DNA from: Candidatus Baldrarchaeota archaeon
GTDB taxonomy: Archaea > Asgardarchaeota > Baldrarchaeia > Baldrarchaeales > DXJG01
NCBI GenBank assembly: GCA_019056805.1
Contig: DXJG01000002.1
Location: forward strand, 283,103-315,102
Direction: 5' to 3'
DNA: 32,000 nt
Shown here: positions 4,257 through 9,607 of the stretch, one piece after another
Position numbering within the stretch: position 1 is the stretch's first letter
How the letters are laid out: each line of letters begins with the position of its first letter
Translations under genes and position numbers: made by a program
The notes under the pieces: model-generated
Seen by the model: the letters and a program-made list of their open reading frames with translations, nothing else
Told to the model about the DNA's origin: nothing
Database searches by the model: none

Positions 4257-5105
4257 ATGTCGGAAGAAATTGTAGGAGCCGAGGTAGTTAGTACAAAAGA
4301 AGGTAGACAATATCACATTAACCTAGCACCGGGAGAACTTGCAGAATATATAATTTTAGTAGGAGATCCGGCAAGAAGCCATAAAACTGCAAAGTTTTTC
4401 GATCAAATTCTGTTGAAAAGAGAAAATAGAGAGTTCATAACTTACACAGGTTTAATAGATAACATAAAAGTTTCCGTGATATCTACTGGTATAGGAACTG
4501 ACAACGTGGAAATAGTAGTTATAGAAGCTAGTCAAATAGTTAAAAATCCCACCTTCATTAGAGTAGGAAGCTGCGGAGGACTACAAAAACACATAAATTG
4601 CGGTGACCTAGTAATCTCGACCGGCGCCGTAAGATTCGAAAACACAAGTCTATACTTCGTACCAGAAGGTTATCCAGCGGTTGCAAGCTACGAAGTCGTA
4701 TTAGCCTTAATTGAAGCTGCTGAAAAACTTGGATATCCCTATCACGTAGGACTAACAGTTACCGCTTCTGGTTTTTATGGTGCCCAAGGTAGAAAAATTC
4801 CAGGGTTCCCGCTCAGATTTCCAAACTTAGTGGAAGAACTTGCAGAAAGAAATGTTTTAAACTTTGAAATGGAAAGTAGCACATTATTCACTTTAGCATG
4901 CGTAAAAGGATTTAGAGCTGGCACCGTCTGTGCAGTCTATGCAAATAGACCTAAAAACGAATTTATCAAACCTAAAGAAAAAGAAAAAGCCGAAGAAAAC
5001 TGCATAAAAACCGGCATAGAAGCTGTAAAAATACTTGCAAAAATGGACAAAGAGAAAAGAAAACAAGGTAAGAAATGGTGGCATATATCGATTTCCTCAA
5101 CCTAA
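4257..5105 (+). CDS. udp: uridine phosphorylase
   Basis: QYHINL, GDPAR, REF, STGIG, RVGSCGG, GFYGAQGR and NFEMESS motifs. Confidence 0.92.
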   Translation: MSEEIVGAEVVSTKEGRQYHINLAPGELAEYIILVGDPARSHKTAKFFDQILLKRENREFITYTGLIDNIKVSVISTGIGTDNVEIVVIEASQIVKNPTFIRVGSCGGLQKHINCGDLVISTGAVRFENTSLYFVPEGYPAVASYEVVLALIEAAEKLGYPYHVGLTVTASGFYGAQGRKIPGFPLRFPNLVEELAERNVLNFEMESSTLFTLACVKGFRAGTVCAVYANRPKNEFIKPKEKEKAEENCIKTGIEAVKILAKMDKEKRKQGKKWWHISISST

Positions 5106-6394
5106 ATTGACCATGGTCTTATTTTTCCTTCTTCCCTGGTCTCATCACTAATTTTAATACTTCCATACTGAATAATAGCTATTTTGTTTTCATCCACATT
5201 TGTTCTTATTATTAGTTCATTTGATTTGGGATTGTATTCTTTTATAATCCCCACACCAAGAAAATTCATCTTATCATCCATCAAACCAACTAAAATATCC
5301 TTAATCATACTGACCGAAACTATCCTTACATCTCTTACCTGTAAAACACGTTTTACAGCTTCAAGAGAAAGTGAATTAATCATTTCATGATTCTCAGTAA
5401 CTATCAGTAAATAATCTTCGCTCCTTTCACAGTGAACCACCTTTACCCCAAGCATAGCACTTACTCTTTCCACTAACTGTTGATCTGCAATTTTCCCAGA
5501 ACCCAATATACCATACGCCACCCCAACACGGCTTAAAGACACTTTTATTTCTCTTAAATTCTCCAAATACCTCCTAAACATAACTTCTCTCAAAAACTTC
5601 CTTTCTTCCCTATTTCTTTCTCTAATTCTAATCGGAGATTTAACCTTTATAACATTTAACTTCAACTTCCTGAGAGGAACAACTAAATGATCCAATTCTC
5701 CCTCATTTTTCTCCACTAAGATGACATGAGTAGGTTTTATAAGATAAAATAACATAGTTTTAAGCTCTCTTGCCTCCCTACCAAATACCCAGCCACACGT
5801 ATCTATCAGAATAACATCTGACCCAAGGTTAATAGCTTTTTCAACCATAAGCTTCGTACCAGCTATAGATCTTTGAATTAGCCCAGATGGACTGGTAGAA
5901 CCAACAAAAAATCCATCAATAAATTTTAAATCCGACAAAAAAGCTACAGGTTCTGTTAGAATTCCCAAACCAATTGTACATGGAGGTCCTACATCACTTT
6001 GTCCTACGTCCTCGTCCAATACTGCCACTTTAAATCCTTCTCTACATAAAATATTGCCGAGATACGTAACTAAGGTAGTTTTACCAGTATCAACATCACC
6101 AACAATAAAAACTATAGCCGGCTTCTCACTTTTCTTTAAATCCTCGGCAATCTTTACCCATTCTTCAGAAATTAACGAATAATCAACCTCTTCTACTTTA
6201 AAACCAAGCCCACCAGTTATCTCTAAACATAGTTCTGTATCTGCATGTATCCCAATGCTTTTCGCTTTTTTAACGACAATTATATCTCCCGTTCGTATAG
6301 GTTTTCCAAAAAGATCACCGGTCCCAGATTGCACTTCGATCTTTGCTGGACCATCAACAATTAATCCTTTTCCCTTGCTTACTTTCACCTGCAT
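5102..6394 (-). CDS. Clp1/Grc3/Nol9-family polynucleotide 5'-hydroxyl kinase
   Basis: Walker A GDVDTGKTT, DxDVGQSDVGPP, DTCGW, and Arg-rich lid REERKFLRE. Start placed at ATG 6394 (MQVKV) with GAAAGGGGA upstream. Confidence 0.9.
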   Translation of the reverse strand: MQVKVSKGKGLIVDGPAKIEVQSGTGDLFGKPIRTGDIIVVKKAKSIGIHADTELCLEITGGLGFKVEEVDYSLISEEWVKIAEDLKKSEKPAIVFIVGDVDTGKTTLVTYLGNILCREGFKVAVLDEDVGQSDVGPPCTIGLGILTEPVAFLSDLKFIDGFFVGSTSPSGLIQRSIAGTKLMVEKAINLGSDVILIDTCGWVFGREARELKTMLFYLIKPTHVILVEKNEGELDHLVVPLRKLKLNVIKVKSPIRIRERNREERKFLREVMFRRYLENLREIKVSLSRVGVAYGILGSGKIADQQLVERVSAMLGVKVVHCERSEDYLLIVTENHEMINSLSLEAVKRVLQVRDVRIVSVSMIKDILVGLMDDKMNFLGVGIIKEYNPKSNELIIRTNVDENKIAIIQYGSIKISDETREEGKIRPWSI

Positions 6395-6614
6395 CGCAAT
6401 CCCCTTTCTACTTATCAACTTCTGTTTGTATCTACCTTTTAGATAATTACCAACATCATCCTATATTTGTTAGTATTTTAACTTACAAACAAAAAACGTA
6501 TGTTAAAAGTCAAATTTTTAACAAAATGCTTCCAATGTAAATTAAGGACGAAAATGTTATTTACCATAAATAAGAATTACAGAGGCAAAACTGGAGTATT
6601 AAAAGGGGAGAAAA

Positions 6615-7919
6615 TTGCATAAAGATGCACGGAATAACGTAAATTTGACTAAACAACAAAAATCAGTTGAATTTGCAAATAGGATTCTCAAATATCTGAT
6701 CAGTCTTGGTAAAGATTTGGATTTTATTAATCACTTTTATGGATTAAATATTTCACAAAACGACATTAGAAGGTTTAAGGATTTTTTGAAAGTAATAAAA
6801 TTAAAGGCTAAAGGATATAGCCTCACCAAAACTTCCATGCTAGTTGGTGTTCCAAAAGATACGATTGCAAAATGGGTTTTTAACAAGAGTCTGCCATTCC
6901 TAGTTAGAATTTTTCAACATTATATCCAACTAGGAGATTCAAAAGATAAATTATGGTTGTCAGTTAATTCTACTAAAGGTGGATTGTTTACTGGGCCGTG
7001 GATACTGGTACCAGACAAAATTATTCACTATGACGACGTGTTATTTGTTATTAATCAACTTAAACCAATAAATGAATGTAAAATAAAACATCAATTTGAC
7101 TTAAAATCTGACAATCTGAAAAGAATGAAACCTAATTTTTTTGCATATCTACTTGGTATACTAGTTGGAGATGCCAGTAAAGTCGGTATAAAGAGGAAAC
7201 GAAGAACTACTAGAAGAATTTCACTATCTTTAACACGCACATATCCAACAAATGAACGATTGGGAGATTTTGTATCCCTATGTGCTAATTATTTAGGGTT
7301 ACGAATGACCAGAATAAAAGATGGACCAAAAGGTAGTAAAAATAAAAATAGCTTTTTTAGATGGAGTTCACAGTCTTCGCCATTAATTGAATGGATATTT
7401 AATGTCTGCTTAGGGCTTAACGATGATCAACTTACAACTTACGATGCAATTAAAGCCGATTGGATTTTAACTGCGCCTAAAACTTTTAGAATATGGTTTT
7501 TACAAGGACTAGCAGACTCTGACGGTTTCGTAGACTTACAAGCCCAGCAAATAGGAATCATAACGCAACCCAACACAGATTTGATTGAAAGAATTTTTAA
7601 GAGTTTAGGAGTTAATTCCAGAAAAAGAATTTTTAGCGGAAGACTAGAAGGTCTGATGATAAATATAAGAGATGCTTACAAACTTCCTATCTTTAACCCG
7701 TTGGTAAGAAGTTATAGATTTGAGTTACTAGAAAAACTTGTCAAAGCTAAAAGAATACGAGGACGTTGGCCAAAATGGTTAAGTGACAAAGTAGATACTT
7801 ACATAAGAAGCGGTTTGCAAGGAACTCAAATTGTAAAAAGAATCCTTAACGAGTTTAACATAGCTATCAGAACTAAACAAATTTATAAAAGACAAAAAGG
7901 GATAAGTCATGAAAAATAA
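6615..7919 (+). mobile_element. free-standing double-motif LAGLIDADG homing endonuclease gene
   Basis: Motif 1 FAYLLGILVGDAS and motif 2 FLQGLADSDGF, both retaining the acidic residue; N-terminal HTH-like segment (SLTKTSMLVGVPKDTIAKW). No intein C/S start or HN end. Overlaps the true kae1 start by 11 nt. Confidence 0.8.
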
Positions 7920-8954
7920 AAGTTTAATATGCATCGGCATCGAGAGTACCGCACTAGTTTAATCTGCGGAAATACTCTCGGTGTCGGAATCATCACCGAA
8001 GAAGGAAAAATACTAGCTAATGTTAAAGATTCTTATATACCGCCTTACGGGAAGGGGATTCATCCAGCGGAAGCTGCGAGGCATCATGCATTAAAAATGA
8101 GAGAAACTATTTTAAAAGCATTAAAACAAGCTAAAATAAAACTAGAAGATATAAATCTAATTGCTTTTGCTCAAGGACCTGGAATGGGACCATGTTTAAG
8201 AACAGGAGCTGTAGCAGCTAGAACACTAGCCTTAACACTAAATAGGCCTCTGGTAGGAGTTAATCATCTAGTAGCTCACATCGAACTTGGAAAACTAGTC
8301 ACTGGCACCACAGATCCAGTTATCCTAGTCGTAAGTGGCGGAACAACAGCCCTTGTAGCCTTAGCTGAAAACAGATATAGAATTCTAGGGGAAACCCTCG
8401 ATATAGCGATCGGAAACTGCTTTGACAGATTTGCACGAGAAGTAGGGCTACACGACCCAAAACACCCGTGGCCCGGACCCATGTTTGATAAAGTTGCTTC
8501 AAAAGGAACAAAATACATCGAACTACCCTACATAGTTAAGGGAATGGATCTAAGCTTCTCAGGACTACTCACCGCCGCTCTAAAGAAAGTTAAAGAAGGT
8601 TATAGAGTTGAAGACGTTGCATATAGTTTACAAGAAACTGCATTAGCTATGCTCACAGAAGTTACTGAAAGAGCCTTAGCACACACAGGTAAAAAGGAAC
8701 TTCTACTAACTGGTGGTTTTGCAAGGAATATTCGCTTACAAAATATGCTTAAAACAATGGTGGAAGGCAGAGATGCAACGTTCCATGTAACTCCACCCGA
8801 ATATGCCAGTGACAACGGAGCTATGATAGCTTGGCTCGGAATCCTTGCATACAAACATGGTATCACAACTAAAATAGAGGAGAGCTATGTTAGACAAAGA
8901 TGGAGAATAGAAGAGGTCGAAATAAAATGGATAAAAGAAAACCAACTAAAGTAG
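7909..8954 (+). CDS. kae1: Kae1/TsaD t6A threonylcarbamoyltransferase; spliced CDS join(7909..7954,7972..8954), 342 aa
   Basis: Exon 1 reads MKNKSLICIGIESTA in a different frame from the called ORF; splicing gives GIESTAHTLGVGI. The body has HPAEAARHH, GPGMGPCL, HLVAHIE, VSGG, GETLDIAIGNCFD, SFSG and DNGAMIA. Confidence 0.95.
7955..7971 (+). other. 17-nt bulge-helix-bulge pre-mRNA intron in kae1
   Basis: Exon stem 7934-7948/7973-7987; central helix CCGC(7949-52)/GCGG(7966-69); 3-nt bulges ACU(7953-55) and AAA(7970-72); intron stem AG/CU with a 6-nt loop. Canonical cuts restore the frame and the His codon. The intron contains an in-frame TAA. Confidence 0.92.
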
Positions 8955-9607
8955 TTAAAATAGATCCTAAAAATCCAGATTATAACATCATCAAGGAAGC
9001 CGCCTTAATTATTAAACAAGGAGGACTGGTAATCTATCCTACAGAAACATGCTACGGTTTAGCAGCCAATGCTTTAGATCCAAAAGCTGTAAAACGCGTC
9101 TATGAAGTAAAAGGAAGACCCTACAATAAACCTTTATCAATAGCAGTGTCTGACCTGGAAATGGCAAAAAGGTACGCTTATTTTACTCCAGAAGCAGAAA
9201 AACTAGTAAAGGAACTCTTACCAGGACCACTAACCATAGCTCTCCCTAAAAAACCAGAAATACCAGATATAGTTAACCCTGATAGAATTGCTATTCGAAT
9301 CCCAAATAATCTCATAGCTATTTTATTGATAAAAGAAGCAGGCATACCTATTACTGCTACAAGTGCAAATAAAACAGGAGATCCACCCCCATACAACATA
9401 AATGATGCAATTAACTCACTGGTCGGTAGTGTTGATTTCGTAATTGATGCCGGTCAACTTCCTAAAGTCCAACCCTCTACCATTGTGGATTTTACCGAGA
9501 AACCCTACCCATTAATTACTAGGGTAGGACCTATACCTCCTTCTAAAATCCTAAAAATACTTAATATTCCACGAGAAAAATGGAATAAGCACATAAGGCA
9601 AAATTAA
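8927..9607 (+). CDS. tsaC: L-threonylcarbamoyladenylate synthase (short TsaC/YrdC type)
   Basis: YPTETCYGL, VKGRPYNKPLS, LLPGPLT, RIP and TATSAN motifs; no Sua5 C-terminal domain. Start ATG 8927 with GAGGT SD; overlaps the kae1 end. Confidence 0.92.
   Translation: MDKRKPTKVVKIDPKNPDYNIIKEAALIIKQGGLVIYPTETCYGLAANALDPKAVKRVYEVKGRPYNKPLSIAVSDLEMAKRYAYFTPEAEKLVKELLPGPLTIALPKKPEIPDIVNPDRIAIRIPNNLIAILLIKEAGIPITATSANKTGDPPPYNINDAINSLVGSVDFVIDAGQLPKVQPSTIVDFTEKPYPLITRVGPIPPSKILKILNIPREKWNKHIRQN

Follow-up and report, generated by a model that had tools for sequence, protein, structure and literature searches.

The kae1 gene in a 32,000-nucleotide (nt) stretch of contig DXJG01000002.1 from a Candidatus Baldrarchaeota archaeon (the window; all positions are counted from its first letter) is interrupted by 17 nt at positions 7955–7971. 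Comparison with other kae1 loci makes it highly probable that these 17 nt are an intron of the bulge-helix-bulge (BHB) kind, as in archaeal tRNAs, that is spliced from the kae1 pre-mRNA. Directly upstream, on the same strand, lies a free-standing gene for a homing-endonuclease-like protein with two LAGLIDADG motifs (6615–7919). The pattern of sequence similarity around both indicates that this cassette apparently arrived from outside, and that BHB introns of protein genes can apparently move between archaeal phyla. An earlier reading of the same DNA from its letters alone (the sequence-only reading) had proposed the intron; that proposal is supported, and the endonuclease gene next to it had been overlooked. 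We give even chances to the wider proposal that a BHB intron of 13–30 nt and a free-standing LAGLIDADG endonuclease together constitute a two-part mobile element, which targets an essential gene at its most conserved codons by homing, passes from one archaeal phylum to another (DPANN to Asgard), and leaves the intron behind as a 'fossil' when the endonuclease is lost.

The reading frame that opens at ATG 7909 encodes MKNKSLICIGIESTALV and ends at the TAA at 7960. Gene callers place the start at ATG 7929 and report an open reading frame (ORF) of 341 amino acids (aa) with the N-terminus MHRHREY; it reads MHRHREYRTSLICGN first and enters the Kae1 sequence from TLGVGI on. When 7955–7971 (UAGUUUAAUCUGCGGAA, with in-frame stops inside) are deleted, the sequence reads GCA C|AT ACT across the junction and encodes a Kae1 of 342 aa in which GIESTAHTLGVGI is intact, the predicted junction in the spliced RNA being ACCGCAC|AUACUCUC. 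Exon 1 (7909–7954, plus strand) encodes MKNKSLICIGIESTA and supplies the first base of the His codon. Exon 2 (7972–8954, plus strand) carries the TsaD/Kae1 domain (Pfam TsaD, 2.4e-82), is of the Asgard type from about position 8004, and its product is 88% identical in amino acids to Kae1 of the same genus. Our re-reading arrived at the coordinates, frames, 17-nt excision and 342-aa product that the sequence-only reading had given. The genome (1.92 Mb, 91% complete) has a single copy of kae1. Purifying selection acts on exon 2, whose nonsynonymous and synonymous divergence (dN/dS) is 0.065/0.73 (about 0.09) relative to L090, a related Baldrarchaeia contig from the Joint Genome Institute (JGI).

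Three kae1 genes of the same genus (G001–G003, 88% aa identity) and one of the same order (G004) encode GIESTAHTLGVGI without interruption and lack the insert. Seventeen further loci carry an insert of 13–28 nt at the identical codon, in the arrangement GIESTA-[insert]-H-TFG, and with the window included exon 1 is open and conserved in its own frame at 18 of 18 loci. A pattern scan of metagenomes, in which the flanks were fixed and the Y and R of the central pair 7950:7968 were left free, returned 71 contigs with the insert pattern. Once these are included the insert ranges from 12 to 30 nt in length, and the geometry of a 4-base-pair (bp) helix with 3-nt bulges is kept. Because there are relatives without exactly these 17 nt, and because the helices covary in 18 sequences, chance can be ruled out as an explanation of the motif.

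Both types of allele occur among public gene calls within one cluster of same-genus Kae1 proteins at 90% identity. The intron-less calls read MQNKIICLGIESTAHTLG, and the mis-called alleles (P0067, P0072–P0075) begin M[YP]RYREYR.SLICGN-TLG, which corresponds to exon 1 in the wrong frame followed by the intron. At NCBI the members of this cluster are labelled Baldrarchaeota or Baldrarchaeia, with one older label of Odinarchaeota, in agreement with the Asgard-type host that had been suggested for the window. The insert recurs unchanged in other assemblies. Two runs of a single study, from which this assembly may derive, yielded contigs that cover the whole region and show no differences; an independent marine metagenome run (X3) yielded a 335-nt contig that is identical over 7649–7983 and includes the insert, beyond which it extends just 12 nt. 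The intron is also identical in L137 and in L090, the DNA of the latter being about 83% identical across the endonuclease gene, kae1 and sua5.

The RNA of positions 7934–7987 (plus strand) forms a BHB motif that was recognized by direct reading, by covariation and, on its 3' side, by RNAfold. An exon-exon helix of 15 bp, three of them G-U (7934–7948/7973–7987), is followed by a central 4-bp helix in which CCGC at 7949–7952 pairs with GCGG at 7966–7969. Two 3-nt bulges, ACU (7953–7955) and AAA (7970–7972), lie on opposite strands, and within the intron a 2-bp stem AG/CU (7956–7957/7964–7965) closes a 6-nt loop. On either strand the bulge follows the 4-bp helix in the 3' direction, as it does in the canonical introns that interrupt archaeal tRNAs at position 37/38. 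If each bulge is cut behind its second base, exactly 7955–7971 are removed and the frame is restored together with GIESTAHTLGVGI, and the same rule fits the other insert-bearing loci. The region has a folding energy of -28.9 kcal/mol in RNAfold (z = -5.43), a stability that none of 200 shuffles matched, and the minimum-energy fold retains the exon and 4-bp helices as well as the bulge AAA.

Pairing was then followed across an alignment of 18 distinct loci, including the window, in which pairs were counted against the structure read from the window (L045 and L048 are one contig and were counted once). Standard pairs occupy 92.1% of the cells, as opposed to 37–44% when the 3' partners are slid by 1–3 columns. 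Double-sided changes number 35 versus 13 ± 2.6 in shuffles, and the covariation score of 0.305 versus 0.156 was reached by 0 of 500 shuffles. At the central pair 7950:7968 ten sequences have UA, seven CG and one AU; the 5' base of this pair ends a Thr codon as its third position, and its partner is inside the intron. The two intron-stem pairs show AU 9, CG 7 and UA 1, and UA 7, GC 6, AU 2 and CG 1, respectively, so that both covary among the loci even though this intron helix (h') is only 2 bp long and does not appear in the minimum-energy fold. In the exon stem some pairs alternate C-G with U-A and others A-U with G-C; in the latter, the choice of Glu codon (GAG/GAA) is tied to Leu CUC or Phe UUC. 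The covariation includes synonymous exon positions. Across the 71 metagenome contigs the Y:R pair is U:A in 52, C:G in 13, U:G in three and C:A in three. The three C:A contigs have no adjacent kae1 match, two being likely chance hits and one ending too near the pattern. Between the window and L090 one exon-stem pair has changed from C-G to U-A, and the intron and the core stem are identical amid synonymous changes. Judged from these alignments, the helices of the kae1 intron are under selection. The comparison of kae1 5' ends across relatives, which the sequence-only reading had put forward as a check, revealed intron-less alleles, alleles of variant length and compensatory stem changes.

The genome encodes proteins that could process such a substrate. 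Two paralogs of the tRNA-splicing endonuclease EndA were found, one of 184 aa with the catalytic Tyr/His/Lys motifs and one of 178 aa without the His, which is the pattern of an alpha-beta heterotetramer, and RtcB is encoded as well. Asgard archaea are reported to have an (alpha-beta)2 EndA with an L1 loop, an insert tied there to broad substrate specificity (PMC5829648). The interpretation of the 17 nt as a BHB pre-mRNA intron is supported by the intron-less relatives, by the 17 same-site loci with their compensatory changes, by the presence of EndA and RtcB, and by the independent assembly.

The ORF at 6615–7919 (plus strand) encodes a 434-aa protein with a helix-turn-helix (HTH) region and a double LAGLIDADG core, and its 3' end overlaps the start of kae1 by 11 nt. 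The two LAGLIDADG motifs read LLGILVGDASK and FLQGLADSDGF. Our searches found 64 homologs, and in 36 of them G185, D186, S302, D303 and G304 are invariant, D186 and D303 being the acidic ends of the motifs. By sequence the ORF has no Pfam match at the default threshold, and the best hit of a profile search against the PDB was PI-SceI with an E value of 0.6; LAGLIDADG_3 is matched at E ≤ 0.01 by 18 of the 36 homologs. An AlphaFold model built on the homolog alignment had a predicted local distance difference test score (pLDDT) of 91.6. Its best fold match in the PDB was I-DmoI (E 4e-7; template modelling (TM) score by target 0.61–0.71), followed by PI-SceI, I-SceI and PI-PfuI, and the model places HTH-like N-terminal helices and a C-terminal helical tail around the nuclease core. 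As modelled, the protein is a putative LAGLIDADG endonuclease of the I-DmoI fold. Relative to L090 the gene has a dN/dS of 0.107/0.75 = 0.14, which indicates purifying selection.

A foreign cassette of about 1.5 kb (approximately 6526–8003, plus strand), which G001–G004 lack, comprises the endonuclease gene together with exon 1, the intron and the first 30 nt or so of exon 2. It was delimited by blastn blocks and a sliding-window mosaic analysis, its borders being those of local blastn blocks. G001, of the same genus, has no endonuclease gene at this place; about 157 nt of intergenic DNA (L004 1298–1454) stand in place of window positions 6526–7907, and the flanking genes, for a Clp1-family kinase on the upstream side and sua5 on the downstream side, are arranged as in the window. 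DNA homology to G001 resumes at 8004 in blastn. In 30-nt windows, exon 1 and the first 30 nt or so of exon 2 are up to 94% identical to DPANN-type cassette alleles and only 53–80% identical to alleles of the same genus (60–75% for exon 1), and an extra N-terminal kae1 codon is common to the window and the cassette alleles. From about 8004 onwards the relationship is reversed, with 73–93% identity to same-genus alleles and mostly 30–70% to cassette alleles (the L053 row was excluded from this mosaic analysis). The homology to other cassettes starts at 6584 in L044 and at 6568 in L050. The tract 6526–8003 looks like a co-conversion tract of the sort left by homing. Searches with tblastn and blastn upstream of the endonuclease gene found no relic of an old kae1 start.

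The endonuclease gene and the intron were repeatedly found together. Wherever a homolog is 44% or more identical and its contig continues far enough downstream, a kae1 with the insert follows directly (18 loci including the window). The named loci that have both are mostly metagenome-assembled genomes (MAGs) of DPANN archaea, namely Iainarchaeum, Aenigmatarchaeota, Pacearchaeota, Woesearchaeota and Nanoarchaeota, and one further MAG is labelled Methanosarcinales. Among 400 Asgard genomes a close copy of the endonuclease was present in this one only, the next best being 37% identical. The distant homologs L046 and L063–L068 (26–37% identity; Hadesarchaea, Nitrososphaeria and other archaea) are not beside kae1, and these and the distant Asgard copies were left out of the comparisons. 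Of 42 informative metagenome kae1 contigs, 16 have the endonuclease gene.

These data suggest the following course of events. The endonuclease gene has displaced the native upstream region, so kae1 would be transcribed with or through it. In the pre-mRNA exon 1 would pair with exon 2 to form the BHB motif, the two-subunit EndA would cut each bulge behind its second base, at 7954/7955 and 7971/7972, and ligation of the exons by RtcB would restore the frame and the ATP-binding motif GIESTAH. Splicing would be indispensable, since the gene is single-copy and both the first beta-strand and the phosphate-binding motif need the junction; no functional Kae1 would be made otherwise. The endonuclease, for its part, may recognize the conserved GIESTAHTFG-coding site of intron-less alleles, a site that the intron splits, so that the carrier is protected. 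Repair of the break would then copy the intron together with the endonuclease gene and the exon sequence on either side (exon 1 and a short tract of exon 2), by analogy with 'collaborative homing'. In this way a cassette from a family found mostly in DPANN archaea may have entered this Baldrarchaeia lineage. We lean slightly towards the view that the linked endonuclease mobilises the kae1 intron.

Several observations weigh against parts of this scheme. As to the RNA, the minimum-energy fold pairs A7953 with U7965 in place of the AG/CU stem, so that the 5' site falls within the loop. The motif thus follows the canonical design in its 3' half only, is minimal or relaxed in its 5' half, and is best regarded as a minimal BHB that can alternatively fold as a bulge-helix-loop. 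The sequence-only reading had called it strict; the 15-bp stem, CCGC/GCGG and the bulges stand, and the strictness does not, since the 5' side is minimal and the AG/CU stem lies outside the minimum-energy fold. The 18 aligned sequences are related, which inflates the shuffle statistics and leaves the slid controls and the counts of pair types unaffected. As to the endonuclease, its LAGLIDADG_3 score of 17.2 bits is below the Pfam cut-off of 22.5. As to the transfer, the nearest cassette outside the genus, L044, has a DNA identity of only 73% over 6584–8060, which points to no donor. Finally, in 26 of the 42 informative contigs, each with at least 1.4 kb upstream, the intron occurs without endonuclease-like sequence on the contig (L084, L086–L088, L093, L095–L097, L099, L101, L102, L106, L107, L109, L111, L114, L119, L121, L123, L126, L130, L133, L135, L141, L142 and L152). 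Their introns are 12–30 nt long, with lengths of 13 and 16 commonest, and from these 26 contigs it follows that the intron can persist independently of the endonuclease. They fit a homing cycle in which the endonuclease is lost, and equally an older intron that was exploited later.

The same frequent absence of the ORF also speaks for another explanation, in which the intron is spliced and the LAGLIDADG-HTH protein has ceased to be a homing nuclease or never was one. It would be a domesticated DNA-binding protein, a WhiA-like regulator or similar, inherited vertically with kae1, and the association of intron and ORF would go back to common ancestry and not to ongoing mobility. This explanation, which we consider unlikely, has a further basis in the divergence between the window and L090. 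The dS values of the endonuclease gene and kae1 are equal (0.75 and 0.73); together with a dN/dS of 0.14 this means that the cassette was inherited vertically and kept functional since the split of the window from L090, a history that accords less with recent homing. WhiA, a non-nuclease regulator that combines a LAGLIDADG fold with HTH, is itself among the fold matches of the model (TM 0.45–0.46, ranks 37/45), and the 11-nt overlap couples the ORF translationally to kae1. The active nucleases outmatch WhiA, however, I-DmoI reaching a TM score of 0.61–0.71, and none of 36 homologs departs from the acidic residues at the ends of the two LAGLIDADG helices. In addition, optional presence within one 90% Kae1 cluster, a mosaic exon tract and occurrence across phyla are typical of mobile endonuclease genes.

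The remaining alternatives concern the intron itself. If kae1 were left unspliced, it would be either a decaying pseudogene or the source of an N-terminally altered protein made from ATG 7929, and the hairpin would be incidental or regulatory. Gene callers do call the 341-aa ORF, here and in relatives, and a search for sequencing runs with this DNA turned up no RNA run that could contradict it. Its product would, however, be without the first beta-strand and the GIESTAH phosphate-binding motif, in a gene that is single-copy and evolves with a dN/dS of about 0.09; moreover, the exon 1 frame is open at 18 loci and the helices covary, synonymous positions included. We regard an unspliced kae1 as very improbable and rejected the pseudogene.

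Still less probable is that the ribosome skips the 17 nt by translational bypass or frameshifting. Bypassing in gene 60 of phage T4 involves a stop codon after the break and a stable hairpin, and the kae1 insert likewise has a stop codon soon after the break and folds stably. On direct reading, however, the junction lacks a matching pair of take-off and landing codons, and a length that varies from 12 to 30 nt around a constant 4-bp helix and 3-nt bulges is the mark of an EndA substrate and not of a bypass signal; bypass was therefore rejected. That the insert is an assembly or sequencing artefact, a concern because the genome is a metagenome-assembled draft of 18 contigs, is next to inconceivable and was rejected on the independent contigs, given its occurrence in two runs of one study and in the X3 contig, the identical intron in the diverged L090 and in L137, and the wrong-frame N-terminus in other public gene calls.

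A spliced BHB intron in kae1 would have a precedent in one other protein gene. The cbf5 gene of Crenarchaeota (Aeropyrum, Sulfolobus) carries a BHB intron (Yokobori 2009, PMC2738675), reportedly described by Watanabe in 2002 and Yoshinari in 2006. Splicing has been confirmed for no archaeal protein gene other than cbf5, whose intron of 16–44 bp is too short to encode a nuclease and for which no partner was named (PMC2738675); the sequence-only reading had named cbf5 as essentially the only well-documented gene with archaeal pre-mRNA BHB introns. The two cases are alike in that a very short intron sits in the gene of an RNA-modification protein, in that exon and intron together form a BHB or relaxed BHB, and in that the intron is patchy among relatives and found in lineages with a hetero-oligomeric EndA. 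They differ in the host gene, kae1 being a synthase of N6-threonylcarbamoyladenosine (t6A), in the Asgard (Baldrarchaeia) host and in the neighbouring endonuclease gene as a companion. They also differ in that the splicing of cbf5 was confirmed experimentally, whereas that of kae1 is a prediction from sequence. In a full-text literature search no publication came up that describes BHB introns in kae1 or in any mRNA of Asgard archaea, and a recent Asgard preprint deals with tRNA introns alone.

The proposed mobility resembles collaborative homing, as described for F-CphI and the group I intron in psbA of cyanophage S-PM2 (Zeng, Bonocora & Shub 2009, via PMC6083498); a related case is mobE of T4 with I-TevIII (PMC2790892). 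In both settings the endonuclease gene lies outside the intron and beside the intron-bearing gene, the site is a highly conserved coding sequence, the intron would shield its own allele, and endonuclease gene and intron are inherited as a pair with exon flanks. The known examples involve self-splicing group I introns of phages and nucleases of the Endo VII-like or HNH type. The kae1 case, in contrast, would involve a 17-nt BHB intron spliced by proteins, in a cellular archaeal chromosome, and a LAGLIDADG enzyme whose target is a predicted one only. I-DmoI, the closest structural match, is encoded inside a long rRNA intron. It has in common with the kae1-linked protein the monomeric double-LAGLIDADG fold and the association with an archaeal BHB-type intron. 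Unlike I-DmoI, the 434-aa ORF, with its extra HTH and C-terminal helices, lies outside the 17-nt intron and upstream of a protein gene, and the sequence identity is only 17–19%.

On the sequence data, then, a known splicing mechanism would gain kae1 as a further host gene, and what is new is the linked, free-standing putative homing endonuclease and the distribution across phyla. No route of spread has been described for such tiny introns (PMC2738675), and the kae1 locus offers a candidate partner for mobility. This universal and essential gene presents, at one locus, an intron-less allele within the same genus and a candidate mobility partner. If the scheme is correct, it would provide a mechanism for seeding spliceosome-independent introns into protein genes of the closest archaeal relatives of eukaryotes, and loss of the endonuclease would explain the many kae1 introns that are without one. 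There is also a consequence for annotation. The intron is unrecognised in databases, and kae1 genes of this kind are mis-annotated or possibly scored as broken.

Some additional observations were made on the intron, on kae1 and on LAGLIDADG genes in related genomes. The intron of L049:3735–3804 (Aenigmatarchaeota) is 28 nt long, contains a 7-bp intron stem, CCCGAAA/UUUUGGG, and takes the full hBHBh' form, with a C-U mismatch in its 4-bp helix. A second site of interruption was observed in 7 of 40 Asgard relatives from three families, whose kae1 is split between GPG-L and GPCLR by inserts of 14–32 nt, all on the minus strand (L030:2244–2273, L033:1236–1265, L034:1197–1212, L035:1228–1243, L036:1183–1216, L037:1213–1243 and L038:1237–1264). 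These inserts fold with an exon stem, a 4-bp helix and an A-rich 3' bulge; in L034, for instance, the helix is GGGG/CUCC and the bulges are UUA and AAA. No linked endonuclease gene was seen at this second site in the relatives that were examined. Distant HTH-LAGLIDADG homologs with 25–37% identity occur in two Asgard families, f12 (G121–G134) and f7 (G319–G399), examples being L070–L080. They reach up to four or more copies per genome, some within open frames of 900–1500 aa, and may be inteins or other homing elements.

A search of positions 6400–9000 against Rfam returned no meaningful family, and the 32,000-nt window contains no tRNA genes. Upstream of the cassette and diverging from it lies a gene for a Clp1-family polynucleotide 5'-kinase (5102–6418, minus strand; PF16575, 3.9e-38). 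Its eukaryotic relatives associate with the tRNA-splicing endonuclease; the position of this gene beside the cassette is probably a coincidence, since intron-less relatives have the same neighbourhood. Downstream, kae1 is followed by sua5 (8900–9607, plus strand; Pfam Sua5_yciO_yrdC, 1.4e-53), which encodes threonylcarbamoyl-AMP synthase, the native partner of Kae1 in the t6A pathway. The succession of kae1 and sua5 is a synteny common to the relatives, with the same order in L004. The two genes overlap by 55 nt in different frames (8900–8954), and an overlapping pair is also present in G001.

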